Source of the DNA: an uncultured Myxococcales bacterium
GTDB taxonomy: Bacteria; Myxococcota_A; UBA9042
Direction: 5' to 3'
DNA length: 64,000 nt
Assembly: GCA_937910235.1 (NCBI GenBank)
Contig: CALENB010000329.1
Span: 871-64,870 of the forward strand
The notes under the pieces: generated by a model
Told to the model about the DNA's origin: nothing
The model's input: the letters and a program-made list of their open reading frames with translations, nothing else
Databases searched by the model: none
Part shown: in pieces, positions 43,718 through 59,196 of the stretch
How the letters are laid out: the number at the start of each line of letters is the position of its first letter
Position numbering within the stretch: position 1 is the stretch's first letter
Program-made: the position numbers and the translations under genes

Positions 43718-43880
43718 AGGGCGTCCTGATCGTGAGGCGGACCGGCGTGCAGTCGTCGGCGTGGCGGCAGCCTACGTCATCCCACCGCCGCTGGGCAGAT
43801 GACCAACTGGGCTGGGTTGCCGGTAGCCGCTGGTAGAGGTGTGCGCTAGGGTTCGCGCGTGCCAGCCAGAGGAGTTGTCC

Positions 43881-46800
43881 ATGCGAGTCATCCCCACCAG
43901 ATACGGCCAACTACGCGGCGGCGCTCGACTTCGGTCGCTCGCGTTGCTGGCGCTGGTCCTGGCGCTTCCGAGCGCTTGCGCGAGCGCGCCCGACGCCGAC
44001 ACCAGCGCCCTCGCGGCCTGCAGCGTCGCAACGGACTGCGCGGTTTTTGACGATGGCGACCCCTGCACCGGCGTCTGGGTCTGCGCGGCCGGCACCTGCG
44101 CGCTCGACACCGCGACCGTGGTGCGCTGCGCGACCGACAAGGACGGGCTGTGCGCCACCAACGTCTGCGACGCCAAGACCGCGACCTGCGCGCTGATCCC
44201 CCGCAATGACGGCGCCGCGTGCGAAGACGGCGACCCTTGCACGATCGGCGACGCGTGCGCGACCGGCGGCTGCAAGGCTGGGGTCGCCAACACATGCGCC
44301 TGCAGCGTCACGGCGGACTGCGTCAAGCGCGAAGACGATGACGTGTGTAATGGCACGCTCTACTGCGACACGGCGACGTTTCCCTATCAGTGCGTCGTCA
44401 ACCCAGCGACCGTGGTGATCTGCCCCGACGGCGGCGGCTGCAAGATCGCCAGCTGCGACCCGAGCGACGGCAGCTGCAGCGCCGTCTCCAAGCCCGATCT
44501 GACGGCCTGCGACGACGGCGAGCTCTGCACACAGAAGGATTACTGCGCCAAGGGCAGCTGTGTCGGTGGCCAGAACACCTGCACCTGCACGACCGACGGC
44601 GACTGCGCAGCGCAGGAGGACGGCGACCTGTGCAGCGGCACGCTGTACTGCGAGAAGATCAGCGGCAGCTGCAAGGTGAACCCGACGAGCGTGGTGGTGT
44701 GTCCGGTGCTGGGCAACACGGCGTGCAGCCAGCGGGTCTGCCAGCCGGCGACGGGGTTGTGTCTGCTTAACGCGGTGAATCAAGGCAAGGGCTGCGATGA
44801 TGGCGACGCGTGCACGACGGCCGAGGTCTGCCAGGGCGGCTTGTGCGCCGGGGGCACGGACACCTGCGCGTGCACGGCCGACAGCGACTGCAAAAAGGCG
44901 GAAGATGGCAACGCCTGCAACGGCACGCTGTTCTGCAATAAACAAAACGGCGTCTGCACGGTGAACCCGGCGACGGTGGTGACCTGCCCAAACGGCGCAG
45001 ATACGGCCTGCAAGGTGAACGCGTGCGCGCTGGCGACCGGCACGTGTAGCCCGACGGCCGTCGAGTTGAGCAAGCAGATCTGCACCGCCAAGACGGAGAT
45101 CACGCCAGAGACCTGTCGGATCGAGGTCCTACCGAGCGGCGCGCCATCACCGACGGTGCTGTGTGACGACGGCGATCCCTGCACCGCCTCGGACACCTGC
45201 GCCAAAGGCAGCTGCAGCGCCGGCACCCAGGTCTGCACGTGCAAGACGGACGGCGATTGCGCCAAGACCGACGACGGTGACCTCTGCAACGGCGTGCCGT
45301 TCTGCGATAAGGGCAGCGGCACCTGCAAACCCAACCCGGCCACGGTCATCACCTGCCCGACCGTCGACGACACCGCGTGCCTCAAGCGCAGCTGCGACGC
45401 CAAGACCGGCAAGTGTCCGCTCAAAGCCCTGGAAAACGGCGATTTTTGCGAGGACGGCAGCGCCTGCACCAAGGGCGACGTGTGCGTATTTGGTCAGTGT
45501 AACCCCGGCGCCAACACCTGCGAATGCCAGACCAACAGCGATTGCCTCAGCAAGGACGACGGTGATCTGTGCAACGGCGTGCCGTATTGCGACAAGACCG
45601 ACCCGAAGAAACCGGCGTGCAAGGCGAACGCGGCGTCGGTGGTGTTCTGCCTGCCCGGCGACGCCCCGTGCGCGACGCAGGTCTGTAATCCTGGCACCGG
45701 CGCCTGCCAACCCAAGCCCGTGGTGGACGGCAAAGCGTGCGACGACGGCACGGTGTGCACCAAGAGCTCGGCCTGCCAAGGCGGCGCGTGCAAGGCGACG
45801 AGCGCGCTGCAGTGTGATGACAACAACGCTTGTACGTTCGACACGTGTGACGCCAAGACCGGCTGCAGCAACGTGCAGGCCAACTGCGTCGACGGCAACA
45901 GCTGCACGACCGACGGCTGCGATGCCAAGACCGGCGTCTGCAGCTTCCCCGAACGGGCCAAGGGCAGCCCCTGCGACGCCGACCAGAGCGGCTGCACCAT
46001 CGGCGACAGCTGCGTCGATGGCGCGTGTAAGGCGGGACCGGCGGTCGTCTGTCAGCTTGGCACCAAGGCCTGTGAGCAGGCGGTGTGCCAAGCCAAGGCC
46101 AGCGACGCCTATCAGTGCGTGGTCGCGGCGAAGGGGGATGGCGCGGCGTGTGATGACGGCGACGTCTGCTCGCTGAGCTCGACGTGCAGCAAGGGCGTGT
46201 GCACCGCGACGCCCGGCAGCGTCGGGCTCTTCTCAACAGGCTACGACCCGGGGGCCGGGATGAAAGGCAGCCTGCGCGCCATCGCGGCTCTGGACGGCGG
46301 CGACTACCTGCTCGGCGGCGTGATCACGGGTAAATCGGCCGCGGACGCGAGCTGGCTGCTCCGGGTCGGCGCCGACGGCAAGGTGAAGTGGCAGCGCAAG
46401 CAGACGGCCAAGGACGGCAAGGGCGCCGGCGAGATCGTCGCGTTGCTGCCGGTGAGCACGGTGGCCGTGGCGGCGCTCCGCAACCAGCCTGCGGGCGACG
46501 CGTACATCGATGTGGTGGGCCTCGATGGCAAAACCGTGGTGTTGACCGCGGCGGTCAAAGCGACGAGCGGCACGATCGCGCTCGCGGGTGGGGTGGCGCT
46601 GGCGGACGGCAGCTTGCTGCTCGGCGGCACACGCAGCTCCGGCGCCAGCGACTATCCGTGGGCTGGGCGGGTGACCGCGTCCGGCGTGCCGATGTGGGCC
46701 GGAGACGCGGCGCAGAAGTTCATCGGGCGGGTGATTCAGACCGCCGCGCCGGCTGGCGATCTGGTGCTGCTCGGCGAGAGCGGCGTCGGGGTCGGGGCGC

Positions 46801-49550
46801 GCGCGTGGGCGGGTCAGGTCTCCCCCAGCGGCAAGCTGATGTGGCAGCTGGCGTTGCCCGGCCACGCTGGCGACCGACTTACGGCGGCGACACGTGCGCC
46901 CGGCGGTGGGCTGCTCTTGGTCGGCACGCGGCGGATCACCACGAAACCACGGGGGTTCATGGTGTCGCTCGCCGAGGATGGTCAAGTGCGGTGGCTCCGC
47001 GAGGCGCCGAACCCGAGCTTCTCGACGGGTGTGGTCGGGCTGGGCGATCACGGCGTGCGGATCGTCGGTCGCTCCATCGTCGCCGCGAAGCAGTTTCACG
47101 CGCTGGCGATCGGCGCCGACGGGCTTGGTAATCCGGTCTTTTCGCGCACGATCACGGGCGCACCGATCGCGGAGGCCCTCGCCGTCATCGGCCACATCGA
47201 CGACAGCGTCGCCGTCGTCGGCTACCAGACCGATGCGGTCGGCCAGCAGCAAGGCTTCCTCTGGCGGGTCGGCGCGTTTGGTCATGAGTCGTGTTCAGGG
47301 CAGGGCAAGTGCGCCGGTAAGCAGCTCGCCGATTGTGACGACGGCGAACCCTGCACGGCGAACCACTGCGCGGCGGCGATCGGCTGCGTGTATGCCCCAG
47401 GCGCGGGCTACGCCTGCGATCCCGATGACGGCTGCCATCTCGACGGGGTCTGCGCGCTTCAGGCCTGCAAACCCGGGGCGAGGACGCGCCTCTTCACCCG
47501 CACCGGCGCCGCGACGGGCAACACCCGGCGCTGGACCGGCAGCCTCAGCCTGGCGCCGTCGGGTTGGCTGCTCTTTGGCCAGGACGACACCTACAAACCC
47601 GTGGTCGAGCGGGTAGACGCCACGGGCACGCCGCTCTGGTCGACGACGTTCCCCGACATCGACAAGTACACCGTCGCCATCCCCACCACGATCGGCGGCG
47701 CGGTGGCGACGGCGGACGGTGGCGCGGTGCTCGCGCTCAACCTGTACCGAACGGGTTTTGCGAACCGGTACGCCGGCGCCCGCAAGATCGACGCGGCTGG
47801 CGAGGAGGTCTGGCAGTTTGGCACCAACCCGAAGCTGGTGCAGGTCGATGGCCAGGCCAGCGATCTGGTCGGCATCCCGGGGAGCGCCGACGTGGTGCTG
47901 GTGACCCAGAAAGACGGCAGCACAGCGACGATTCGGCTCGACGCAGCGGGCAAGAAGGTCTGGACGTCGAACACCTACTACAGCACCCAGTTCAAGCAGA
48001 AGATCGCCGAAGACCGCCGCGCTACCGCCTTGGGCCTCAGCGACGGCGGCGCGATCGTTGGTGTGACCCTCGCTGCGCCGGGTAGCGGTGACGCGGGGCC
48101 GTGGCGGCCGCATCTGCATCGCATCAACGGCCTAGGCGTGGTGACGTGGCATCGTGATCTGGACCAGATCGGCGCCGCCAAGCTGTCGCGCTTAGTCCGC
48201 CGGACAGACGGCGCGCTGCTCGCCGTCGGCTGGATCCCGACGCCTGCGCAGGAGGCCTCCCGGCTCTGGCTGGCGCGGTTCGACGAGGCGGGCAAGGTGT
48301 TGTGGCAGCGGGATCACAGGCTCGACGCGGAGCCGCGCGGTGTATCGGCGACGCCCGACGGCGGCCTGATCTTGCTCGGCACACAGCAGACGGCGTCCAA
48401 AACCCACGCCTTTCAGCTGGTGAAGGTTGGCCCAGGCGGCGGTGTGTGGTGGCAGCGCGCCCTCGCGCCGGCTGGCGTCTCGGCGCAGGCGGGCAGCTGG
48501 GACAGCGTCGGAGTCACCGCCGACGGCGGGCTGCTCGCGGTCGGCGCCTCCGCGGCCGGCACCCAGGCGTCGCAGGCGTTGATGATGCGTTTGGACCCGT
48601 GGGGCCACGTCAGCTGTGCGGAGGCGGGCACGTGCGGCAAACAGGTGGGCAACGTCAAGACCAAGAGCTGCGACGACGCCAAGCCGTGCACCGTCGACCG
48701 CTGCGACCCCAAAACTGGGGATTGTAGCCACACACCCGCGGCGGATGGGCTGGCGTGCGGCGACGCCAAGGTCTGCGTCGCTAGCGTGTGCACCGCCGAG
48801 CCCGAGGGGATGATCTTGGTCGCCAAGGGCAGCTTCTACATGGGCTGCAACGTGGCGGTGGAGACGTGCGGCGCCTACGAGCAGCCCGTGCGCAAGCTGG
48901 CCATGGCGAGCTTCTGGATGCAGCGCGGCGAGGCGACGTTTGGTCAGCTCAAGGGCTGCAGCGATCTGGGCAAGTGCGCCGTGCCCTATAAGTACACCAT
49001 CGCCGCCCACGATCTACCGATCAGCGACATCTCTTGGGTCGCGGCCCAGGCGTACTGCGGCTTCATCGGCGGGCGGCTGCCGTCCGAGGCGGAGTGGGAA
49101 TACGCCGCGAAGGGCAGCTGCGCGATGATCGACGGCGACTGCGCCAAGGGCATGCCCGTGCACTATCGGCCTCTCACGATGAGCGCGTGTTCCTGGGCCA
49201 AAAGCACGCCAGCGTGGTCGTACGCCTACGGCTGCGGCAACAAAGTGCTGCACCGCGCCGGTCAGGCCAGCGGCGATCGCAGCCCGTGGGGGGTCCTCGA
49301 TCTGATGGGCAGCATGCAGGAGTACACCCACGACTATTTTGACACCGAGAGCTACAAGCTCGACTTCGCGCTGTTTCCGTTCGGCAAGGTGAACCCGACG
49401 AACCCGAACAACCGGGTCGTGCGCGGGGGCCACTTCTATGCGGGGACGCTCGACAAGGCGTATCGCCTCGCGTTGCGGACCAACGCCAACGCGGGCGGCC
49501 ATCAGTATTCTGGCTTTCGCTGCGTGATCCCGATCCCAGTGACGCCGTAG
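43881..49550 (+). CDS. 1889-aa Cys-rich lipoprotein with two propellers and a C-terminal FGE-sulfatase (SUMF1) domain
   Basis: GAGGAG RBS; PSAC lipobox-like motif; GSFYMGC, RLPSEAEWEYAAKG, SPWGVLDLMGS, RVVRGG, GFRCV. Confidence 0.9.
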   Translation: MRVIPTRYGQLRGGARLRSLALLALVLALPSACASAPDADTSALAACSVATDCAVFDDGDPCTGVWVCAAGTCALDTATVVRCATDKDGLCATNVCDAKTATCALIPRNDGAACEDGDPCTIGDACATGGCKAGVANTCACSVTADCVKREDDDVCNGTLYCDTATFPYQCVVNPATVVICPDGGGCKIASCDPSDGSCSAVSKPDLTACDDGELCTQKDYCAKGSCVGGQNTCTCTTDGDCAAQEDGDLCSGTLYCEKISGSCKVNPTSVVVCPVLGNTACSQRVCQPATGLCLLNAVNQGKGCDDGDACTTAEVCQGGLCAGGTDTCACTADSDCKKAEDGNACNGTLFCNKQNGVCTVNPATVVTCPNGADTACKVNACALATGTCSPTAVELSKQICTAKTEITPETCRIEVLPSGAPSPTVLCDDGDPCTASDTCAKGSCSAGTQVCTCKTDGDCAKTDDGDLCNGVPFCDKGSGTCKPNPATVITCPTVDDTACLKRSCDAKTGKCPLKALENGDFCEDGSACTKGDVCVFGQCNPGANTCECQTNSDCLSKDDGDLCNGVPYCDKTDPKKPACKANAASVVFCLPGDAPCATQVCNPGTGACQPKPVVDGKACDDGTVCTKSSACQGGACKATSALQCDDNNACTFDTCDAKTGCSNVQANCVDGNSCTTDGCDAKTGVCSFPERAKGSPCDADQSGCTIGDSCVDGACKAGPAVVCQLGTKACEQAVCQAKASDAYQCVVAAKGDGAACDDGDVCSLSSTCSKGVCTATPGSVGLFSTGYDPGAGMKGSLRAIAALDGGDYLLGGVITGKSAADASWLLRVGADGKVKWQRKQTAKDGKGAGEIVALLPVSTVAVAALRNQPAGDAYIDVVGLDGKTVVLTAAVKATSGTIALAGGVALADGSLLLGGTRSSGASDYPWAGRVTASGVPMWAGDAAQKFIGRVIQTAAPAGDLVLLGESGVGVGARAWAGQVSPSGKLMWQLALPGHAGDRLTAATRAPGGGLLLVGTRRITTKPRGFMVSLAEDGQVRWLREAPNPSFSTGVVGLGDHGVRIVGRSIVAAKQFHALAIGADGLGNPVFSRTITGAPIAEALAVIGHIDDSVAVVGYQTDAVGQQQGFLWRVGAFGHESCSGQGKCAGKQLADCDDGEPCTANHCAAAIGCVYAPGAGYACDPDDGCHLDGVCALQACKPGARTRLFTRTGAATGNTRRWTGSLSLAPSGWLLFGQDDTYKPVVERVDATGTPLWSTTFPDIDKYTVAIPTTIGGAVATADGGAVLALNLYRTGFANRYAGARKIDAAGEEVWQFGTNPKLVQVDGQASDLVGIPGSADVVLVTQKDGSTATIRLDAAGKKVWTSNTYYSTQFKQKIAEDRRATALGLSDGGAIVGVTLAAPGSGDAGPWRPHLHRINGLGVVTWHRDLDQIGAAKLSRLVRRTDGALLAVGWIPTPAQEASRLWLARFDEAGKVLWQRDHRLDAEPRGVSATPDGGLILLGTQQTASKTHAFQLVKVGPGGGVWWQRALAPAGVSAQAGSWDSVGVTADGGLLAVGASAAGTQASQALMMRLDPWGHVSCAEAGTCGKQVGNVKTKSCDDAKPCTVDRCDPKTGDCSHTPAADGLACGDAKVCVASVCTAEPEGMILVAKGSFYMGCNVAVETCGAYEQPVRKLAMASFWMQRGEATFGQLKGCSDLGKCAVPYKYTIAAHDLPISDISWVAAQAYCGFIGGRLPSEAEWEYAAKGSCAMIDGDCAKGMPVHYRPLTMSACSWAKSTPAWSYAYGCGNKVLHRAGQASGDRSPWGVLDLMGSMQEYTHDYFDTESYKLDFALFPFGKVNPTNPNNRVVRGGHFYAGTLDKAYRLALRTNANAGGHQYSGFRCVIPIPVTP

Positions 49551-49580: not shown

Positions 49581-52500
49581 CTACCGCCGCAGCGCCACGG
49601 CTGTCGGCGACTGCAACGCGCCGTCGATCAACGCCTGCACCGGCCCCTCATAGACGATAGTACCGCCCTTATCGCCGCCACCGGGCCCCAGATCGACCAG
49701 CCAATCCGCCTCCCGCAGCACGTCGAGGTTGTGTTCGATCACCACCACGGTATCGCCGCGATCCACCAGCTCGTGCAGCACGTCTAGCAGCTTGCGTTGG
49801 TCCGCCAAGTGCAGGCCCGTCGAGGGTTCATCCAGCACATACAGCGTCTCGTGGCGGCGCTGCTTGGCGAGCTCGGCGCAGACCTTGATGCGCTGGGCCT
49901 CCCCGCCCGACAGGGTGTTGCTGCCTTGACCGATGCGCAGATAACCGAGGCCGACCTTCTCCGCCAACGCCAGCGGCCGGTGCACCGTGCGCAAGCGCTG
50001 GAAGTGCGCCGCCGCCTCCGAGATGCTCATGGCGAGCACGTCCGCGATGGTGGCGCCACGCAGCTGCACCCGCAGGGTTTGGCGGCTGTAGCGCGCGCCG
50101 CCGCACGTCTCACAAGGCACATACACCGTCGGTAGGAAGCTCATGTCGACCTTGATGACGCCCGCGCCCTGACACGTCTCGCAGCGGCCTCCTTTCACGT
50201 TGAACGAGAAATGCTTGGCTTTGAGGCCGAGGATCTTGGCTTCTGGCTGCGCGGCGAACTGTTTGCGGATGCCGTCCCACACCCCCAGATAGGTCGCCGG
50301 GCAGGATCGCGGCGTGCGGCCGATGGGGCTCTGATCGACCTCGACGACGCGGCCGAGGCCCTGCAAGCCCGTGATGTCCGCGATCTCGTCGTCCACGGTG
50401 ATGGCCGCCGCGTCGCCGTGCACCAGCGGGCCGCCGACGCCGACCAGCAGGTCGCGGACCAGGGTCGATTTGCCTGAGCCGCTCACCCCCGAGATGCCGT
50501 TGAGCCGGCCACGCGCGATGGTCGCGTCGACCCGACGCAGGTTGTTGCGTCGCGCGCCGCGCAAGCTGATCCGCGGAGAATCCGGCGTCACAGCGCGGGC
50601 CTCATGCCGCGAGCGCCGCAACGTCGGGTCGGCCAACATCCGACCGGTCGGCGAGTCGGGATCGGCGAGCAGGTCGGCCAAGGAGCCGGCGTGTAGCACC
50701 GCGCCGCCGAGCTCACCGCCACCGGGGCCGAGCTCCACGACGTGATCGGCGCGCCGGATCGTCTCTTCGTCGTGCTCGACGACGATGAGGCCGTTGCCCC
50801 GCGCGATGAGGTGATCAAAGGCCGCCAGCAGCCGCTGGTTGTCGGCGGGATGGAGCCCGATGGTCGGCTCGTCGAGCACGTATAAGACGCCACGCAGATT
50901 GGAGCTGAGCTGGCTGGCGAGCCGAATGCGCTGGCTCTCCCCGCCCGACAGGGTCACCGCGCTGCGGTCGAGGCTCAGGTAGTCGAGGCCGACGTCGAGC
51001 AGGAACGCGCACCGCGCCGCCACCTCTCGCACGATGGGATCGGCGACAGCGGCGTCGCGGCTGCTCCACACCACCGCAGACAGAAACACCGTCAGCTGTT
51101 GCGGGTTCATCGCGCTCAGCTCGTGGATGCCTTTGCCGGCGACGGAGACCTCAAGCGCCTCGGACCGCAGCCGCGCGCCGTCACAGCTCGGGCACCACGC
51201 CAACCGCCGCCGCTCCTCCTGCTCGCCCTCGCGCAGCTCGCCCTCCTCCAACTCTTGCAGCGCGGCGGGTGTCTCGGCCTCCACCTTCGCCGCGCGCGCC
51301 GACTTGGGCCGACCCGCGATCGGCGTTGGTGTCTCGTCGGGCGCCATGCCCGAGCCCCGACAGTCTGGGCACCAGCCGCGCGTCGACGTGAAGCTAAACA
51401 GCAGCGGATCGAGGCCCGTCGCTCTGCGGCCCGTGGCGCTGCCGGCGGGATCGACCTCAAAACTGTGCACGCCGCTCGCCGCCGTGCGCACCCGCACCTG
51501 GCCGTCGCCTGCGTTCATGGCCGCGGTGATGGCCGCCTCCAGCACCTCGGGGCGCCACTGGCCGGGGCGCCCCTGGACCATGTGCGTCATGGCTGGCTCA
51601 GGAGCGAGCACCACCAGCACATCGTCGATGTCGTGGGCGACGTAGCGGCGCAGCGGCGGCACGGCGGCGATGGGACACAGCGCGTCATCGATATGAATCC
51701 AGGTGCGCCCGGCGCGCTCGGCGCGCTCGATGACGTCGCGATGAAAGCCCTTGCGGCCCCGCACCAGCGGCACCATGACGTAGAGCGGCGCGGTCGCCGG
51801 CAGCGCGGCGACCTGCAGCGCCACCTCCGCCGGTGTACGCACGGCCAGCGCGCCTTCGTGGGCGGCGGAGACCCGACCGCAGCGGGCGAACAGCAACCGC
51901 AGGTAGCTTTGGATGTCCGTCAGGGTGCCGACGGTGGAGCGGCTGCCGCCGCGCGTGGTGCGCTGGGCGATGGCGATGGTCGGCGGCAGCCCGCGCAGGC
52001 TGTCGACATCGGGGCGGCTCACAGGCGGCAGATATTGGCGGGCGTAGGGCGACAAGCAGTCGAGGAAACGGCGCTGGCCTTCGGCGAAGACCACGTCAAA
52101 GGCGAGCGACGACTTGCCGGAGCCCGACAGCCCGGTGATCACCGTCAGCCCATCGCGCGGCAGATCGACGCTGATGTTGCGGAGGTTGTGCACCCTGGCG
52201 CCGCGCACCTCGACGTGGCCCGGGTCGTCCAAGGCCTCGGCGATGGCGAGGTTCGGCCGGGCTGCGATCGTCGCCGCTGGCGCTGTAGCCCCGTCCAGAT
52301 GGGCCCGCAGCCACTGGCCGGTCGCCGTGGCGCCCAGCTCAGCGAGCCGTGCGGGCGGGCCCTGAAAGAGCAGCGATCCCCCGCCGGGGCCGCCTTCAGG
52401 TCCGAGCTCGACGACATGATCAGCGGCGGCGATCACGTCGAGGTGATGCTCAACCACCACCACGGTGTTGCCCGCCGCCACGAGCTTGCGCAGGCTGTTC

Positions 52501-55238
52501 AACAAGACCCGCACATCGTCGAGATGCAACCCCGTGGACGGCTCATCGAGCAGGAACAAGGCCTGCTGCGTACGCTGGCAGAGCAGATGCCATGCGACTT
52601 TGAGGCGCTGGGACTCGCCGCCAGACAGCGTGCTGAGGGGCTGGCCAAGCCGCAGGTAGCCGAGCCCCAGCTCGCACATCGCCAGGGCCGGGCGGGCGAG
52701 CTTGCGGTCGTCGGCGAAACGCTCGGCGATCTCGTGAGCTGTGGCGCTGAGGAAATCCGCGGCCGACATGCCGCGCACCTTCACATCGAGCACCTCGGGG
52801 CCAAAGCGGCGGCCTTCGCAGGCTTCGCACGTGACCCGCACGTCCGAGAGGAACTGCATGTCGACGACCTCGAGCCCGGCGCCGTTGCAGACCGTGCAGC
52901 GACCGCCGGGCCGATTGAACGAGAACATCGACGTGGTGTAGTCGCGTTCTTGCGCCAGCTCGGTCGCCGCCAAGCGCTGGCGCACGGCGTCCCAGAGCTT
53001 GAGGTAGGTCGCTGGGTTGGCGCGGCTGTTGCCGACCACGGCGGCTTGCTCGACGAGCACCACGTCATCGAGCCCGTCCGTGCCTTCGAGGCCACCAAAC
53101 GCTCCCGGTGTCTCCGTGGGGCGGCCGAGTTGGCGCAGCATGGCGCGGTGCAGGACCTCCTCGACCAGCGTCGATTTGCCGGAGCCGCTGACGCCGCAGA
53201 CCACGTTGAGCCGGCCGCGCTTGAAGCGCACACGGCCGCCCTTGAGGTTGCGCGCCTGGGGTTCGATCACCGCCAGCCAGGGGCTCCCGGCGCCGAGCGT
53301 CGTCCGCTCGCGGTCGAGCAGGCGGGCCCGCTTGGCGATGGTGCGTGACATGTCGCGATCGGTCGCCGCCCGCTCGCGCAGCGCCTCGCCGTGCGCGAGC
53401 GGCGCCGGCGCAGTCTCGCGGACGTGGCGCCGGCCGAGGAGGTAGTCGGCCGTCAGGCTACCTGAGACGCCGGCGAGGTCCGCTGGCGGCCCGGAGAACA
53501 GCAGCTCGCCGCCGTGTTCACCCGCGCCCGGGCCAAGGTCGATGAGGTGATCGGCCGCGGCGATGAGCGCCGGATCGTGCTCGACCATGACCACGGTGTT
53601 CCCCGCCGCTTTGAGGCGACCGAGGATGCCAAGCAGCCGCTCGTTGTCGCGCGGATGCAGCCCGACGCTGGGTTCATCGAGCACGTACAGCACCGAGCTC
53701 AGCCCGCTCGAGAGGGCCGTCACAAGCTGCACACGCTGTAGCTCACCGCCGGACAGGGTGCGACCCGGGCGTCCGAGCGTCAGGTAACCGAGGCCCAGCT
53801 CGCCAAGCAGCGCCACGCGGCGTGCCAACTCCGCGAGCGGACGCGCCGCCGCGCCACCGTCTGCCAGCCCAGCGATCCAGCCTTGCAGCACCTCGATGGG
53901 GGTCTGCAGCCACACGGGCAGCGCCGCGCCGGCGACCTGCCAACCGAGCGCCTCGGGCTGCAAGCGCGCGCCATCGCAGGCGGGACACGTCACATACTTG
54001 CGATACCGGCTCAGCAGCACCCGCACGTGCATCCGGTAGGTGCGGGTCTCCAGCCACGCGAACCACTCCCGCAGCCCCCAAAATCGGGGCGCGCCGGGGA
54101 AGGCCGTGACGCGTTCGGGATCGTAGCCGTCCATCAGCCAGCCGCGCGTGGCTTCGCTTAGGTCGGCCCACGGCACCTGCTGATCGATCTCGGCGGCCTG
54201 GCAAAACGCGTCGAGCTGCTCTCGCTCCCAGGTGGTGCGCTCCGTCGTCCAGGGCTTGATGGCGCCGTCGGCCAAGCTCAGGCCCTCGTCGGGCAGACAT
54301 CGGGCTTCGTCGAGCGCCATGATGCGACCAAAGCCGTTGCACGTCTCGCAGGCGCCGACCGGCGAGTTCCAGGAGAACAGGTTGGGCGATGGATCGGGGG
54401 TCTCGTGGTCACACGTCTCACAGCGCAGCGCCGATGACGCGCGGTGTCGAATGAGCGGCGCCGCCTTCTTGGCGCCGCGCGTTGGGGCGTCGGTCTCCGT
54501 CACCGCGTGGAGCCCCGTAGTCGCTGCGAGCGCGTCGCCCTCAAGCCACAGGTGCACCTCGCCGTCGCCGCGCCGCAGCGCTTCGTGCACCGATTCGAAC
54601 AGCCGGTCGGCTTCGGTCGCGTCGATCTTCAGTCGGTCGACCAGCACGTCGACCGGCTCTCCGGGGGTGAACGTCTCCAGCGGCGCGACTCTCTGATCTT
54701 TCCATTGACGATGCAGCCCGGCCCGCGCCAGCTCCCGCAGCGCCAGCTCGCCACCGCTTCGGAGCTGCAGCGGAAAGGTGATCACCGCGCGCCGACCCGA
54801 CGCGTGGTTGAGGAGGGCTTCCACCACCTGCACCGTCTGTAGTCGCGCCATGGGGCCGTGGCCATTGGGGCACGTCGGCAGCGCGGCGCTGGCGAAGACG
54901 ACCTTGAGGTACTCCGAGATCTCCGTCAGCGTCGCCACGGTGCTACGCGCCGCGCGCAGCCGTTTGCCCTGCTCCAGCGCGACGGTGGGCAGGATCCCGG
55001 TGATCTCGTCTGCCTCAGGGCGGTCCATCCGCTCGAGAAACTGGCGCGCGTAGCTGCTCAGACACTCGACGTAGCGGCGCTGTCCCTCCGCGTAGAGCGT
55101 GTCGAACGCGAGCGAGCTCTTGCCGGAGCCGCTGACCCCGGTGATGACGGTGATCTGGCGGAGCGGGATGTCGAGGTCAAACCCGCGCAGGTTGTTCTGG
55201 CGTATCCCACGCAGGCGGATGACATCGGGCTCATTCAT
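49581..55238 (-). CDS. uvrA: Excinuclease ABC subunit A, double-length (two fused UvrA units)
   Basis: Four Walker A motifs G(V/L)SGSGKS, two AEGQRR motifs, four LSGGE signatures, four LDEP Walker B motifs and CxxC zinc motifs; ATG 55238. Confidence 0.95.
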
Positions 55239-55391
55239 GGGCGGGCTCCGCGGCAGGGTCGAGCGGGACCTGTCGAGCCCGCGGCGCAGTGTGCGGCGGC
55301 GGCAAAAAAAACCCAACATACGGCAAAAAATCGGTCGCAAAAGCGCGCGTTTCGCCGTCAGAATGGCTCTCTCCAGCCATACGCTGTTGAC

Positions 55392-55471
55392 AATAAAGCG
55401 TAAAACAAAAGTGACAGGTATGTGACAGAAACGTGTTGACGGGGTGTCACAAAGCTGTATAGTCGCCCTCG
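55392..55471 (+). promoter_or_regulatory. Sigma70 stable-RNA-type promoter
   Basis: TTGACG (55436-55441), 16-nt spacer, TATAGT (55458-55463), GC-rich discriminator CGCCCTC; A-tracts upstream (55392-55410) in otherwise GC-rich DNA. Confidence 0.8.
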
Positions 55472-55571
55472 TTGAACGGCACTAAGGAGCTGATCGCACT
55501 GAGGGTCCACAAGACGGCATTCCTTCGCGGAGCGCAAGTCGGGGACACAAACCTCAAGGGGGGAGGCAGCG

Positions 55572-55607
55572 CTCGAAAGAGGCAAGCCAACCCGCGGTTC
55601 TTTGACA
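55572..55607 (+). promoter_or_regulatory. boxB-like hairpin and boxA-like (NusB/NusE antitermination) element
   Basis: ctcGAAAgag (55572-55581), then GGTTCTTTGACA (55596-55607) versus the rrn boxA consensus TGCTCTTTAACA. Confidence 0.7.
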
Positions 55608-55608
55608 C

Positions 55609-57156
55609 TCTGCAGAGCAGGTACCAGACCGATACGCTAGTTGAGCGTGCTGTCTCCAGGGAGACGACTCTTCGGAGTCGACTTCAAGAAGTGGCATGAA
55701 GCAGCGAGCCGGACGGGCCAAGAGAGCGAGGTATCCGAAAGGGTGCTCCGAAGGAAGGTTCAGAAAGCGCGAATCGAGGGAAGTACCGAAACCCATGAGA
55801 GGAGGGGGCGGCGCGAGAGAGCGCGAGGCCGAGAGGAGGGAGTCATCGTCAAGCAATTGGCGGCGGGTCACAAATCGAAGCGCGTGTGAAGACGTGACGT
55901 CGCCGAGAAGAGCGGGGAGAAATCCTCGGAGAGGCGAAAGCCCAAGAGAGGAACGGGTGTTGGGAACCGGGTAATACCGGTCCGGCGCAACGGACCTTGC
56001 TGATGCATGAATCCTCAGGGCCCCAATTTGTCGACACGTATGGCGGTCGGCGGCAAAGACTGCGGCGACGCAGTTCGAGACGTCGGAGAGTTGTGCGGGG
56101 CGGCACGATTAAGGGCGAAGAGGGCAGGATGCGCCGTGAGGCGTGGAAGGCTACAGCGAGGGGGAAACCTCTGAAGGGAGAAACCCCATGGACGCTTTCG
56201 GCATGAAATAGGGCTGAAAGGTGAAGAGCGGAATAAAGCGTCAAGAGGTTGAGAAAACCTGAAGGCGCAGCGGAGCTGGGCGAGGTAAACCCAGTGTAAG
56301 TCGCTGCTTTTCACTGATGGCGTCGAAGGGGCACCAAAGCCTAAGAGTGTGTGGTTACGGATCGACTGGGAGGAAGTCTGAGCGGCGTTGAAAGCGGGGT
56401 TAAAGCCGCGGAAGAGGCCGGTTGGGTGGAGTCGCTAGGTCTGAAAAGGTAGTGAGCGCGAGGAAAGCGAAGGGGGAAGCAGGGGAGCGGCCGAGAGGTT
56501 GTGAAGCTACGGAAACCAAGCAGAACACGCGTGGGACAGGGCGAACCGCTTGCGGGGAGTCGTGAACGCAGTCGCTGCGCGGACAGGTCGAAGTGGAAGC
56601 TTGGGGCGAGAGTCACAGGTGAAAGCGTCGAGGTGGAGAGTTGGACGTGTAAGCGGACGGCAGGAAGCTCCAGGGCGGAGAAGTGGAAGAGGTGGCGTTG
56701 AGGGTCAGCACCGCGAGGTGGGGGCAGGAGATGGCGCTGATGAAGCGGACTACAGGGGATGACGTAGCGGAATCGTCGAGGATAGACGCTGAACGCAAGC
56801 TGAAGGAACAAGAGTGGATGCCGAGGCTGAGTTGATTAGTCTCGGCAAGCCGGAGGGTGAGTACCGCGAAGGTCGGGAATGTGAAGGTTGTGCCCGCAAG
56901 GGTTGAGCTGGAGCGTGACTAAGGCCATGGCGGGTATACGAAACCAATGACGTACCAGGTCTCCGGTCTGAAGACGCTGAAGTTTATGGTAATGCGAGGA
57001 GTGGATACGCCGCAGGTGGTGACACAGGCGCGCGCAACTCGATGACGAAGAGTTCATGAAGGGCCAGTTGGCGCTAAGGGGAGACCCGAGGTGCAGGCTG
57101 CCCGAGTGAAGACACACGCTGAAAGGCGCAACTCATGGGCGGTCAGTTCTGCCAGA
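55609..57156 (+). ncRNA. Putative ~1.55 kb structured non-coding RNA of unknown class
   Basis: Own promoter and terminator. 5' TCTGCAGAGC pairs with 3' GTTCTGCCAGA. Many GNRA/UUCG hairpins, strong purine skew, no credible ORF, and no 16S/23S/5S/tRNA signatures. Confidence 0.8.
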
Positions 57157-57166
57157 CAACCGGAGA

Positions 57167-57204
57167 GACCCGGATCGCGCAAGCGGTCCGGGTTTTTTCG
57201 TTTT
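57167..57204 (+). terminator. Rho-independent terminator
   Basis: GACCCGGATCGC-GCAA-GCGGTCCGGGTT followed by TTTTCGTTTT. Confidence 0.9.
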
Positions 57205-57250
57205 GCGGCCGCTGGGTCTCGGTTGCGTCGTCGGCTGCGCCCAGCGTCCA

Positions 57251-57289
57251 GCGCGCCTTGTGCGCGGCGCGCCTTGTGCGCGGCGCGCC
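57251..57289. repeat. 16-bp tandem repeat GCGCGCCTTGTGCGCG x2.4
   Basis: Read directly: 57251-57266, 57267-57282, partial copy to 57289. Confidence 0.8.
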
Positions 57290-57345
57290 AGCCGCTCGGC
57301 TACGTTCTATTTCCGTAGTGCTGGGGGGAGTGCTAGAACCCAGCC

Positions 57346-59196
57346 ATGAGGAGCCCTCGGTCCACAACTCGCTGCGTCGCCTTCCCCGTGACTCGACTAC
57401 CCCTTGGTCTGGTGCTGGTCGTGATCTTGGGCCTGACCGCGTGCGCCCAGCGCCGGGACGTTGCGACAGCGCGGCCGGTCGTTGCGACGCCGGCTGACGC
57501 TGGTCCGGCGGGCGTCGTCGCACCCTCAGCCGTGCCCATCGCCGCTCGCCGGTCCGTCCGGGTGCTCGCTGCGACGCCGATTTTTCAGCTCGATCGCGTG
57601 GTCGACGTGAAGCTGGAGCTCGACGCGCAGGCGCTCGCCTCCCTGCGTAACCAGCCGCGAGTGTATACCCGCGCGACGGTCACGGTGGATGGCGAGCGCA
57701 TGATCGAGGTCGGCGTGCGGCTCAAGGGGCACCGCTCGTTTCGGGACCTGGGTGACCGACCGTCGTACCTGCTCGATTTTAAGCGCTTCTCACCCAAGCG
57801 GCGTCTGCACGGCCTGCGCAAGCTGGTGCTCAACAGCATGGTTGAAGATCCCACCCTGGTCCGCGAGGTGTTGGGCTACGAGCTCTTCCGCAAGGCAGGG
57901 GTGACCGCGCCGCGGACGGGGTACGTGCGCGTCACCGTCAACGGCAAACATCCGCAGCTCTACTTGGCGGTGGAGCCCATCGACAAGACGTTTCTGACGC
58001 ACCGCTACGCTAACCCGAAAGGCAACCTCTACGAAGGTGAGTACGGCTGCGACGTGAACCGGGAGGACGTGTGGGGTTTTGACCTGGACGCGGGCCGCGA
58101 CACCAGCCGCGCCGATTTCAAGGCCCTCGCGGCGCTGATGCCGCGCGGCGTGACGGTCGTGTTTGGCGATGGTCCCGGCGGCGTGGACCGCGAGCAGGTG
58201 TTGGCGTTCTTGGCGATGAGCGTCGTGGTCGGTGATTTTGACGGCTATGAGCACCACCACAACTACTTCCTGTATCACGAGCCGTCGCGCGATCGCTGGT
58301 CGATGATGCCGTGGGGGATCGACCGCGCGTTCTTTGATGACGTGAAGCCCTACGCCTGCGAGGGGCTGATCGCGCGGATGTGTTTTGCGGACCGCGCGTG
58401 CCGGGTCGCCTACGTCGCTCAGCTTCGCAGCGCTGTGGGGCTGCTGGAGGCGGCGAATCTGCCGGAGCGTGTGAGCGCGATCGACGCCTTGATCGGCAGC
58501 GTCGTCGCGGCGGACACCCATCCGCCCCGCGCCGCCAAGAAGCGGCGGAAAAAGCGGGCTGAGCTGCTGCGATTTGTGCGTGGCCGCGCCAAGCAGCTCG
58601 CCAAGTGGACCGATTGCCTGCGCGGCGGGAAGGAGCGCGATCAGGATGGCGACGGCTACGGTTGCATGGACTGCGACGACCAGAACCCTGCGGTTCATCC
58701 GGGCGCGGCGGAGGTCTGCGACGGCGTCGACAACAACTGCTCAGGGCAGGTCGATGATGCCCCGCAGTGCCCCTGCACGGTGAGTCAGATCGACGGCGTG
58801 CGGTTTGAGTTGTGCGACCTGCCGATGCCCTGGCTTGAGGCGGCGCGCTACTGCAAGGCCAAAGGCATGCACCTCGCGCGGGTCGACTCCAAAGCGCAGA
58901 GCAAGGCGCTGTATCAGGCCGGGCGGCGGGTGCGAAAGACACAGTGGTGGCTTGGGCTCAACGACCGGCAGGCGGAGGACCAGCATGTGTGGGACGACGG
59001 CACGAAGGTTGGCTTCACCCACTGGAAGAGCGGCGAGCCCAGTGACATGGCGTGCGGCGAGGACTGCGTCGCGCTCGCCAAACGGGCCAAGGGCAAGTGG
59101 TATGACAGCCATTGTGGGCTGCATCGGGCCTTCATCTGTCGGGCGCCAGACGCGGCCGCGGCGACGCCGGCGCAGCTCGTGGCCCCAGGCAAGTAG
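57346..59196 (+). CDS. Lipoprotein: CotH-family kinase, MopE-like repeat and C-type lectin domain
   Basis: LTAC lipobox; VGVRLKG..SF, LVLNSMVEDP..VRE, NYFLY...WSMMPWGID (CotH); DCDD..PAVHPGAAEVCDGVDNNC; WLGLND, WKSGEP, EDC, WYDSHC (CTL). Confidence 0.88.
   Translation: MRSPRSTTRCVAFPVTRLPLGLVLVVILGLTACAQRRDVATARPVVATPADAGPAGVVAPSAVPIAARRSVRVLAATPIFQLDRVVDVKLELDAQALASLRNQPRVYTRATVTVDGERMIEVGVRLKGHRSFRDLGDRPSYLLDFKRFSPKRRLHGLRKLVLNSMVEDPTLVREVLGYELFRKAGVTAPRTGYVRVTVNGKHPQLYLAVEPIDKTFLTHRYANPKGNLYEGEYGCDVNREDVWGFDLDAGRDTSRADFKALAALMPRGVTVVFGDGPGGVDREQVLAFLAMSVVVGDFDGYEHHHNYFLYHEPSRDRWSMMPWGIDRAFFDDVKPYACEGLIARMCFADRACRVAYVAQLRSAVGLLEAANLPERVSAIDALIGSVVAADTHPPRAAKKRRKKRAELLRFVRGRAKQLAKWTDCLRGGKERDQDGDGYGCMDCDDQNPAVHPGAAEVCDGVDNNCSGQVDDAPQCPCTVSQIDGVRFELCDLPMPWLEAARYCKAKGMHLARVDSKAQSKALYQAGRRVRKTQWWLGLNDRQAEDQHVWDDGTKVGFTHWKSGEPSDMACGEDCVALAKRAKGKWYDSHCGLHRAFICRAPDAAAATPAQLVAPGK

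Follow-up and report, generated by a model that had tools for sequence, protein, structure and literature searches.

A gene for a large structured RNA with an rRNA-like leader in the Myxococcota

Introduction

What does a bacterial locus encode that is laid out like a ribosomal RNA (rRNA) operon and holds neither rRNA nor a credible reading frame? This question is raised by positions 55436-57204 (+ strand) of a 64-kilobase (kb) stretch of DNA, from here on called the window, which comes from an uncultured Myxococcales bacterium (assembly GCA_937910235.1, contig CALENB010000329.1). All coordinates count from the first letter of the window. A preliminary description, made from the letters alone, had seen here an rRNA-operon-style transcription unit and had proposed a non-coding RNA (ncRNA) of a possibly undescribed class. 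To our knowledge, very few bacterial RNAs longer than 1 kb are known besides rRNA.

We find that the locus is the gene of a structured non-coding RNA of about 1.73 kb that stands alone and has several domains. It is of middle size within a family found across the Myxococcota. The explanation as a whole, in which the RNA gene is joined by rRNA-style synthesis and a structural role in trans, we hold to be probable. The earlier proposal of an ncRNA of a possibly undescribed class is supported by the lack of a match in Rfam, by covarying homologues and by the presence of the RNA in RNA libraries.

Results

A discrete unit without coding signal

The unit at 55436-57204 is discrete and has its own promoter and its own terminator: the promoter is followed by about 1735 nucleotides (nt) without coding signal and by an intrinsic terminator. 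Its features are listed here, with the evidence in brackets; G labels stand for genomes, L labels for homologous loci or contigs and X labels for sequencing runs.

55411-55450, + strand: two GTGACA repeats (55411, 55422) and one TGTCAC repeat (55445), partly within the promoter; possible regulator sites (by sequence)
55436-55463, + strand: sigma-70-type promoter TTGACG-16 nt-TATAGT (1 site found vs 0.2 expected)
55470-55542, + strand: 5' end of the transcript, start inferred near 55470 (RNA-library contigs starting at 55481 and 55485)
55543-55595, + strand: conserved leader element with the boxB-like hairpin GGCAG..CTCGAAAGAG..GCAAGCC at 55565-55588 (alignment)
55596-55607, + strand: boxA-like motif GGTTCTTTGACA (resembles the 16S leaders of G087 and G026)
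55608-55621, + strand: boxC-like 5' strand of a predicted leader-trailer helix, CTCTGCAGAGCAGG (16S leaders have ACTGGATAGCAGG at the same place)
55622-55902, + strand: variable region 1, in which the hairpins at 55665 and 55731 lie (conserved within the genus only)
55903-56032, + strand: conserved 5' domain with the GGGGAGAAATCCTC hairpin, GAAAGCCCA and the CCGGGTAATACCGG hairpin (sequence conservation)
56157-56334, + strand: core domain, 44 base pairs in 10 helices (model R1, 189.5 bits)
56335-56781, + strand: hypervariable insert site, here a very purine-rich expansion of 447 nt (common to the genus only)
56782-57030, + strand: 3' domain, 39 predicted pairs, with a conserved AAACCAAT loop hairpin (56935-56955) and a GUGA hairpin (57015-57028) (covariation)
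57144-57157, + strand: trailer strand of the leader-trailer helix, CAGTTCTGCCAGAC, just before the terminator (complementarity)
57167-57204, + strand: intrinsic terminator, a bulged GC-rich hairpin and a T-run (fold energy, cmscan alignment)

The promoter TTGACG-N16-TATAGT that had been read from the sequence is present and is the sole promoter-like site within 55000-57500, where shuffled sequences give 0.2 +/- 0.4. Of 28 genomic homologues, 15 have a TTGAC -35-like hexamer ahead of the leader. The strong terminator of the preliminary description was found as well, with -23.3 kcal/mol by RNAfold for the 45 nt preceding the T-run; it was overlooked by a consensus scanner because its stem is bulged, and the stem is also visible in the cmscan alignment. 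Terminators made of a hairpin and a T-run lie 340-500 nt past the core in most relatives and 770-860 nt past it in the genus of the window; by the criteria of our script, comparable terminators occur 340-860 nt downstream of the core in 26 of 44 homologous loci. With the start placed near 55470, the distance to the terminator is 1735 nt, and the length of about 1.55 kb given earlier had to be corrected.

The unit also stands out by its composition. GC content drops from 0.68-0.73 in the flanks to 0.57-0.62 within it; the GC skew is as high as +0.43, and the AT skew is about +0.3. Purines make up 0.640 of 55470-57204, and the count of 47 purines among the 60 positions of 56461-56520 was confirmed letter by letter.

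The longest open reading frames (ORFs) inside the unit have 92 amino acids (aa) on the + strand (55696-55974) and 156 aa on the - strand (56341-56811). Compared with three relatives, mismatches per codon phase are 100/112/85, 39/53/48 and 31/23/22, and most insertions and deletions (indels) are 1 nt long. The unit does not evolve like coding sequence; substitutions without three-base periodicity and common 1-nt indels agree with the earlier statement that it holds no credible ORF.

Homologues in the Myxococcota

The RNA gene is single-copy in its own genome. In a DNA search, pieces of it were found in 13 of 40 relatives, in two conserved islands. We built a covariance model, R1, of the second island (56157-56334; 178 positions, 44 pairs), and this model matched 57 of the 107 genomes of the same class, or 38 of 68 when only those of high quality are counted; 35 of 58 genera had a match. 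Among 151 genomes sampled across the phylum 34 were matched, including 17 of the 123 outside the class. Two to four core matches on different contigs were present in G071, G072, G076, G087, G089, G053, G113, G134 and G215.

Searching one genome per species for 185,579 species with the exact leader pattern, we obtained 19 records, all of them metagenome-assembled genomes (MAGs). Fifteen are labelled Myxococcota, Myxococcales, Anaeromyxobacteraceae or Deltaproteobacteria, and four Proteobacteria/Pseudomonadota, Enterobacteriaceae or Bacteroidaceae. The core is also present in 18 of the 19. The lone record without it, from a MAG labelled Bacteroidaceae (L077:673-715), may be a chance match or the leader of another transcript. 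A metagenome contig of 1139 nt (L135) has two core matches, at 415-589 and 860-1078 (162.8 and 86.1 bits), which points to a tandem duplication of the core or to an assembly artefact.

Covariation in the core and the 3' domain

The core at 56157-56334 and the 3' domain at 56782-57030 are held by base-pair covariation on the + strand. In 49 model-aligned matches of the core, 93.3% of 2032 cells are standard pairs vs 37-46% when the partners are slid; 40 of the 44 pairs have changed on both sides, and none of 500 shuffles reached any of five measures. An independent alignment of 13 core sequences (MAFFT, folded with RNAalifold) gave compensatory changes in 23 of 38 pairs. The 3' domain, for which a plain MAFFT alignment of 20 sequences was used, is 90.8% paired vs 35-45% with slid partners, and 35 of its 39 pairs have changed on both sides. 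Homologues and their covariation, by which the preliminary description was to be judged, thus give strong results in both domains.

G-U pairs are frequent, with 31 of 49 sequences having one at a single core pair, and many positions alternate between G-C or A-U and G-U. The RNA strand can therefore only be the + strand, in line with the selection at RNA level that had been read from G-U pairs in the stems. All seven tetraloop hairpins picked out earlier are exactly in place, and the stem at 56819-56847 is present too; the case for structure rests on covariation and not on hairpins picked by eye. The RNA has what marks a large structured ncRNA: more than 500 nt, non-coding, many compensatory helices and transcription signals of its own.

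Weak internal matches to R1 were observed elsewhere in the window RNA, at 55912-55961 (16.7 bits) and 55985-56126 (9.4 bits). They have a common module, consisting of a hairpin, a CUGAAGG-like run and GAAA-CCCA, and CTGAAG occurs five times in the RNA. By its sequence, this may be a repeated tertiary or protein-binding module.

Comparison with known RNA families

Using cmscan with Rfam 15, we found none of 4227 families at the gathering threshold in the 64-kb window, which supports novelty. In a permissive scan of 55250-57350 with E up to 10, the sole match was that of the terminator hairpin to an unrelated small RNA (10.6 bits, E 9.3), which is due to chance. A scan of 20 related contigs (55,305 bases) gave no match. 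In particular, the models for small- and large-subunit rRNA (SSU and LSU) found nothing at gathering in the window and nothing at E up to 10 in 55250-57350, and the five universal 16S/23S motifs reported as missing are indeed absent from the region and from the whole window on both strands. OLE, ROOL, GOLLD, HEARO, raiA and all other Rfam 15 families were likewise without a match at gathering in the window and in the 20 related contigs. For group I and II introns there was no Rfam match, none of 48 insert ORFs was found in Pfam, and no reverse transcriptase occurs among the 25 commonest neighbour families listed.

A divergent substitute for RNase P RNA or transfer-messenger RNA (tmRNA) was ruled out, as neither model matched and the canonical genes lie elsewhere in the same genome, on C522 (RNase P RNA, 254.6 bits) and on C246 (tmRNA, 171.7 bits). 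6S RNA was not found in this genome by a search that detects it in only 5 of 14 control genomes; the window RNA is about 10 times as long as the 187-position 6S model.

The window RNA apparently belongs to an undescribed class. We found no description of such an RNA in the full-text literature, a scope outside which most subscription journals and survey supplements lie and in which the motifs of the Weinberg/Breaker surveys are covered only through their inclusion in Rfam.

Presence in RNA libraries

The window RNA is present in RNA libraries. A search of sequencing runs gave 19 rows with the stretch, of which 9, from 7 studies, are on record as RNA. We compared 54600-58000 with the contigs of four runs, namely X4, X8 and X10 (RNA) and X21 (DNA from the same sample as X10). 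Contigs identical to the window were found in X4 (55485-56399 and 56372-57063) and in X8 (55481-56257 and 56242-56844); the contigs of X10 cover 55525-56257, 56242-56707 (with 2 differences) and 56758-57029. Exact contigs from the RNA libraries of two studies jointly cover 55481-57063, and transcription, which the preliminary description had proposed, is in this way supported by contigs identical to the window.

The 5' ends of these contigs at 55481 and 55485, from two studies, are four bases apart and have no loose end. They fit a start shortly past the -10 box, which is a weak hint. A loose-end consensus at 56228 resembles the core of the family, so homologues of relatives are present in the same RNA libraries. 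The depth figures of 543-1335 come from short contigs that have nothing but the conserved 56228-56271 in common with relatives; they provide no ranking of expression. The flanks 54600-55480 and 57064-58000 are uncovered in the three RNA runs, and the DNA run X21 is wholly uncovered; such blanks carry no weight.

An rRNA-like leader and predicted leader-trailer pairing

The conserved leader element begins about 100 nt past the start. The outer pairs of its boxB-like hairpin are swapped for other pairs in L025, L030 and L034. The boxA-like element of the preliminary description was recovered as GGTTCTTTGACA at 55596-55607, and its TTCTTT is invariant in 10 of 10 aligned sequences.

We compared the leader with 16S leaders of relatives, because no 16S gene is assembled in the own genome; none is assembled in G001, G010, G014, G034, G011, G084 and G085 either. 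The leaders of the ncRNA have a hairpin, the boxA-like GGTTCTTTGA(A/C)A and then ACT..AGCAGG, in the order found in 16S leaders of the class. In G087 (2 operons) and G026, the 16S leaders have the boxA-like motif GCTCCTTGA(A/G)AA followed by ACTGGATAGCAGG, the full stretch being GCTCCTTGA(A/G)AACTGGATAGCAGG. In the three operons of G093 this place is taken by ..CTCTGAAAACTGGATAGCAGA, where the boxA pattern used finds no match; what matches there is ACTGGATAGCAG alone, the motif that comes next. Hence the boxA-like core is common to the ncRNA, G087 and G026, and the ACT..AGCAG motif to the ncRNA and all three genomes. The rRNA-operon style of the unit is more literal than had been supposed, comprising both boxA and ACT..AGCAGG as in 16S leaders of the class and a predicted pairing of leader with trailer.

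Three clades have three different complementary leader/trailer pairs, GCAGAGC/GCTCTGC, GCACAGT/ACTGTGC and ACAGGGG/CCCCTGT. The duplex has -17.5 to -31 kcal/mol in all 19 loci with boxA and terminator, with z <= -2 in 11 of them. When all of the RNA downstream was searched for the best complement of the post-boxA segment, this proved to be the trailer, 56-78 nt from the 3' end, in 11 of 21 full-length members.

According to passages of PMC10250234, boxB, boxA and boxC follow one another in this order in E. coli pre-rRNA; boxC is part of the 5' strand in the helix of leader and trailer, and the antitermination complex depends on boxA. The genome of the window has genes for both NusB and Rho.

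A single insert site and giant relatives

A 24-nt pattern from the core is present in at least 120 metagenome contigs, and 80 of these were examined. In 47 of the 80, leader, core and 3' domain follow in order, and the leader lies at one of two preferred distances from the contig 5' end. The 3' ends of 36 of the 47 are 62-95 nt past the 3' domain, many stopping within the trailer or the terminator stem. Such clustering of ends is what assembled transcripts would give. Complete at both ends are 26 contigs of 1002-5338 nt, and the difference in size between them is one non-coding insert of 50-4450 nt between core and 3' domain. A single site between these two domains thus takes inserts of 50 nt to about 4.4 kb in relatives. 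The insert is at most 156 nt long in 26 of the 47 contigs and at least 441 nt in 21; typical relatives have about 1.0-1.3 kb, and some apparently 2.4-5.3 kb.

Large inserts have about 50% purines and a GC content of 63-68%. That of L101 (1192-3154) consists of about 26 tandem units of 75-77 nt, each a short hairpin and a long UUCG-capped hairpin, with compensatory differences between copies; similar units are present in L136:1170-1567 and L103:1022-1536. L121:800-3340 has a recurring GGCTC-TTCG-GAGCY hairpin and direct-repeat families of up to 9 copies, and the insert of L094 is not repetitive. Copy numbers of the hairpin arrays may be wrong in short-read assemblies. The insert of the window is of another, purine-rich kind and not a UUCG-hairpin array, and no tandem repeats were found inside the window RNA, insert included.

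Coding inserts were rejected. Pairs of giant inserts with 75-93% identity across the insert (L094/L134, L098/L154, L160/L153 and L098/L110) lack codon periodicity and differ mostly by 1-2-nt indels, and the longest ORFs of 16 long contigs with inserts gave no Pfam match (0 of 48). We also considered tRNA-like units in the 75-77-nt repeats; none was called in L101, L136, L103 or L121, and a single doubtful call of 95 nt was made in L094.

Genomic neighbourhood

Among 73 flanking ORFs of 19 loci there is no recurrent family, the top Pfam family being present in 4 of the 73. No integrase, transposase, reverse transcriptase or phage gene is among the 25 commonest listed of the 58 Pfam families matched in the flanks. 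UvrA-like and LysR neighbours are kept within the genus only, and flanking genes differ between genera. Neither of two patterns matched any of 2.9 million viral contigs, and searches of 50,697 phage and 72,556 plasmid records were negative as well.

Some observations concern the surroundings of the unit. Two copies of GTGACA, 11 nt apart, lie just 5' of the -35 hexamer, and the complement TGTCAC lies within the promoter spacer. Similar motifs are found upstream of the homologues L026, L025, L030 and L034, while other homologues have TTTCCACA(A/G)G instead. To judge from the sequence, these repeats are possible regulator sites. About 2.4 copies of a 16-nt unit, GCGCGCCTTGTGCGCG, directly follow the terminator (57251-57289), 5' of the CotH gene, and TRF flagged a 12-nt period at 57211-57239.

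Divergent from the RNA gene lies an ORF of 1919 aa (49581-55340, - strand) with two sets of UvrA_DNA-bind, UvrA_inter and ABC_tran domains, apparently a UvrA paralogue in doubled form. The stretch 57346-59196 (+ strand), which separates the RNA from the LysR gene, encodes a 616-aa protein with a CotH kinase domain, a MopE metal-binding motif and a C-type lectin domain; the loci of G001 and G003 that correspond to it gave no CotH match. A 1903-aa ORF at 43839-49550 (+ strand) has a C-terminal FGE-sulfatase domain and Dictyostelium-type CTDC repeats.

Discussion

How such an RNA might be made

Our data suggest, with somewhat better support than the explanation as a whole, that the RNA is made as 16S rRNA is, by Nus-dependent read-through and leader-trailer closure, with the purine bias as an aid. 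In this proposal, which is drawn from sequence features, the leader hairpin and the boxA-like motif would recruit NusB/NusE and other Nus factors, and the Nus-bound RNA polymerase would read through a long untranslated transcript that is exposed to Rho. After boxA, the boxC-like strand would be held near the polymerase and would pair with the trailer once that emerges. The resulting helix would close the whole RNA and is possibly also a site for RNase III. Rho loading sites are C-rich, and a make-up with G>C and many purines would further deprive Rho of them.

What the product does is a more tentative matter. It may act in trans as an abundant structural RNA, as the scaffold of a ribonucleoprotein (RNP) or in an RNA-only assembly like those of OLE, ROOL and GOLLD, with the insert as a tolerated expansion or payload; this part of the reading we hold to be possible but short of probable. 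The RNA would then be neither a cis-regulator nor a messenger nor a guide.

Several points weigh against this explanation. Nus binding, antitermination and processing are predictions from the sequence. In 4 of 31 aligned leaders (L035, L040, L046 and L048), unrelated sequence stands in the place of the boxA-like motif, and upstream of the core no leader was detected in 13 of 44 loci, some of them cut by contig ends. In the window itself the leader-trailer duplex is weak (-19.3 kcal/mol, z -1.2); within the genus of the window z is -0.1 to -1.2, and the trailer is not the best complement of the leader segment. One clade (L028, L032, L033 and L036) pairs via a different leader segment, beside an insertion, and a single consensus helix on the full-length alignment A6 was dropped as the register varies between clades. 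As to structure, fitting the core alignment A4 to the model favours pairing in it; in the 5' domain (55903-56032), aligned with MAFFT, RNAalifold finds only 3 pairs, and the 447-nt insert has a folding z of -0.9, with 21 of 100 shuffles folding as well. The contigs from RNA libraries give neither level nor strand nor true RNA ends, and support for the preliminary term 'highly expressed' comes from contigs of small RNA libraries, by which level is not measurable. About half of the class genomes are without an R1 match, so either the RNA is not essential for the lineage or R1 misses divergent forms. Finally, a conserved gene neighbourhood as a clue to function was ruled out, since neighbours are kept only within the genus, and no partner or role is indicated by them.

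Other explanations

Of the other explanations, the one that survives best is that of a decoy, in which the RNA titrates an RNA-binding protein or the Nus and rRNA-processing machinery, the giant hairpin arrays being added sites. CsrB titrates CsrA via repeated modules in this manner. The recurring CUCUGAAG-type modules of the window RNA, among them the two weak R1 matches at 55912-55961 and 55985-56126, would fit such a role, as would the roughly 26 tandem two-hairpin units of L101, the recurring hairpin and the repeat families of up to 9 copies in L121 and the presence of the RNA in small RNA libraries. An rRNA-like leader could also compete for Nus factors. However, CsrA as a partner is set aside, as no gene for it was found in the own genome, which is rated 100% complete. 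The loops of the repeats are of the UUCG type, a stable cap more than a typical site of protein binding; the window copy and the 26 of 47 relatives with short inserts have no arrays, and the conserved parts are multi-helix junctions and not repeats. On balance we regard a decoy as unlikely.

Somewhat less likely still is a catalytic RNA whose 5' and 3' domains, joined by the leader-trailer helix, form an active site, with the insert as a peripheral domain as in group I and II introns or RNase P. In favour of it are the size of the RNA, its many invariant unpaired purines, its conserved 5' and 3' parts around a freely variable middle and the predicted long-range pairing between its ends. No intron, RNase P or ribozyme model of Rfam matched it, however, even with E up to 10, and RNase P RNA is encoded elsewhere in the genome. 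There is no exon-like conservation in the flanks and no intron-encoded protein, and the contigs show full-length forms with inserts, which means that the insert is not efficiently removed.

A selfish or mobile element that bears the RNA, or a phage-derived RNA like GOLLD and ROOL with the insert as cargo, might be suspected from the 2-4 matches in each of nine genomes, the patchy distribution (57 of 107), the locations that differ between genera and the kilobases of extra sequence taken up by one site. We consider this improbable in view of the neighbourhood, where no mobile or phage genes are among the 25 commonest families listed for the 73 flanking ORFs of 19 loci, of the searches of 2.9 million viral contigs and of 50,697 phage and 72,556 plasmid records, which found nothing, and of synteny within the genus and a single copy in the own genome.

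It is very improbable that the unit is a messenger for small proteins or a long leader regulating a downstream gene in cis: ORFs of up to 92 aa on the + strand and common purine runs like Shine-Dalgarno sequences would allow it, but these ORFs are not conserved, three-base periodicity is missing, 1-nt indels are frequent between close relatives, a strong terminator precedes the next gene, and what this gene is varies from genus to genus, often with the opposite orientation. Equally remote is a decayed rRNA operon with a surviving leader and trailer around a body in functionless drift, which the likeness to 16S leaders of the class and the leader-trailer helix might suggest and which covariation brings close to refuted, the body having no SSU or LSU similarity at E up to 10, being conserved, with compensatory substitutions, in different families and classes of the phylum, and being present in RNA libraries.

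Relation to known systems

The preferred explanation, a structural RNA made in the manner of rRNA, has its closest counterpart in the 16S pre-rRNA unit (rrnTAC). Both have a strong promoter, a hairpin, a boxA-like motif and a boxC-like strand complementary to a trailer, around a long untranslated structured RNA, and the order boxB-boxA-boxC and the role of the boxC helix are as given in the passages of PMC10250234 mentioned above. In contrast to that unit, the body of the window RNA is not rRNA, having no SSU or LSU match and none of the universal motifs; the unit is monocistronic, ends at an intrinsic terminator and occurs in about half of the class genomes, and its factor binding is a prediction.

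With OLE, ROOL and GOLLD, and also with raiA and HEARO, the family has in common that it is long and non-coding, with many covarying helices and conserved loops. In the sections of PMC12286853 consulted, ROOL and GOLLD are described as having a disordered linker midway along the sequence, of which the variable insert site is reminiscent, and GOLLD is the largest of the three ornate classes analysed, with many members of more than 800 nt, whereas the window family spans 1.0-5.3 kb. ROOL and GOLLD are borne by phages or prophages, whereas the window RNA is chromosomal and without a viral match. The family further differs from OLE, ROOL and GOLLD in its phylum, the lack of an Rfam match and the rRNA-like leader. 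The size range and the rRNA biogenesis signals set the family apart from the known large bacterial ncRNAs.

Work by Stringer and colleagues in eLife in 2020 is said to have shown for boxA-led CRISPR arrays that boxA protects a long untranslated non-rRNA transcript from Rho. These arrays would be a precedent for a boxA before such a transcript. They differ in that no CRISPR repeats, spacers or cas genes are present here and in that the repeats in the inserts of relatives are whole 75-77-nt hairpin units without variable spacers. The sponges CsrB and RsmZ are likewise stand-alone ncRNAs with a terminator of their own, abundant as the window RNA may also be, and hairpin arrays occur in some relatives of the window RNA. 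CsrB has a few hundred nt, and the window family is 5-15 times larger. Moreover, the genome has no CsrA gene, the loops of the family are UUCG and not GGA, and the conserved part is a multi-domain fold.

Meaning of the family

Of the readings weighed here, an abundant structural RNA made through the rRNA antitermination pathway is the most likely. A bolder form of this reading is that some Myxococcota have, next to the two large rRNAs, a third rRNA-like giant RNA, of 1-5 kb, which is both transcribed and folded by the rRNA antitermination and chaperone complex, is closed by the leader-trailer helix and forms the core of an RNP machine or an RNA-only cage, with the hypervariable insert, of up to about 4.4 kb of UUCG-hairpin arrays, as payload or expansion segment; this we would call speculative and rather doubtful.

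The family is distinctive in three ways: strong covariation among members that range from 1.0 to about 5.3 kb in size, signals of rRNA-type biogenesis on an RNA that is not ribosomal, and presence in RNA libraries of several environmental studies. If our explanation is true, it would extend the size range of bacterial structured RNAs beyond 23S rRNA and would add a new target for cryo-electron microscopy among the large natural RNAs. It would also identify an abundant, unannotated transcript that is now left unassigned by metatranscriptome pipelines. Moreover, the family would offer a natural test case for the Nus complex as a general chaperone of long-range RNA helices.

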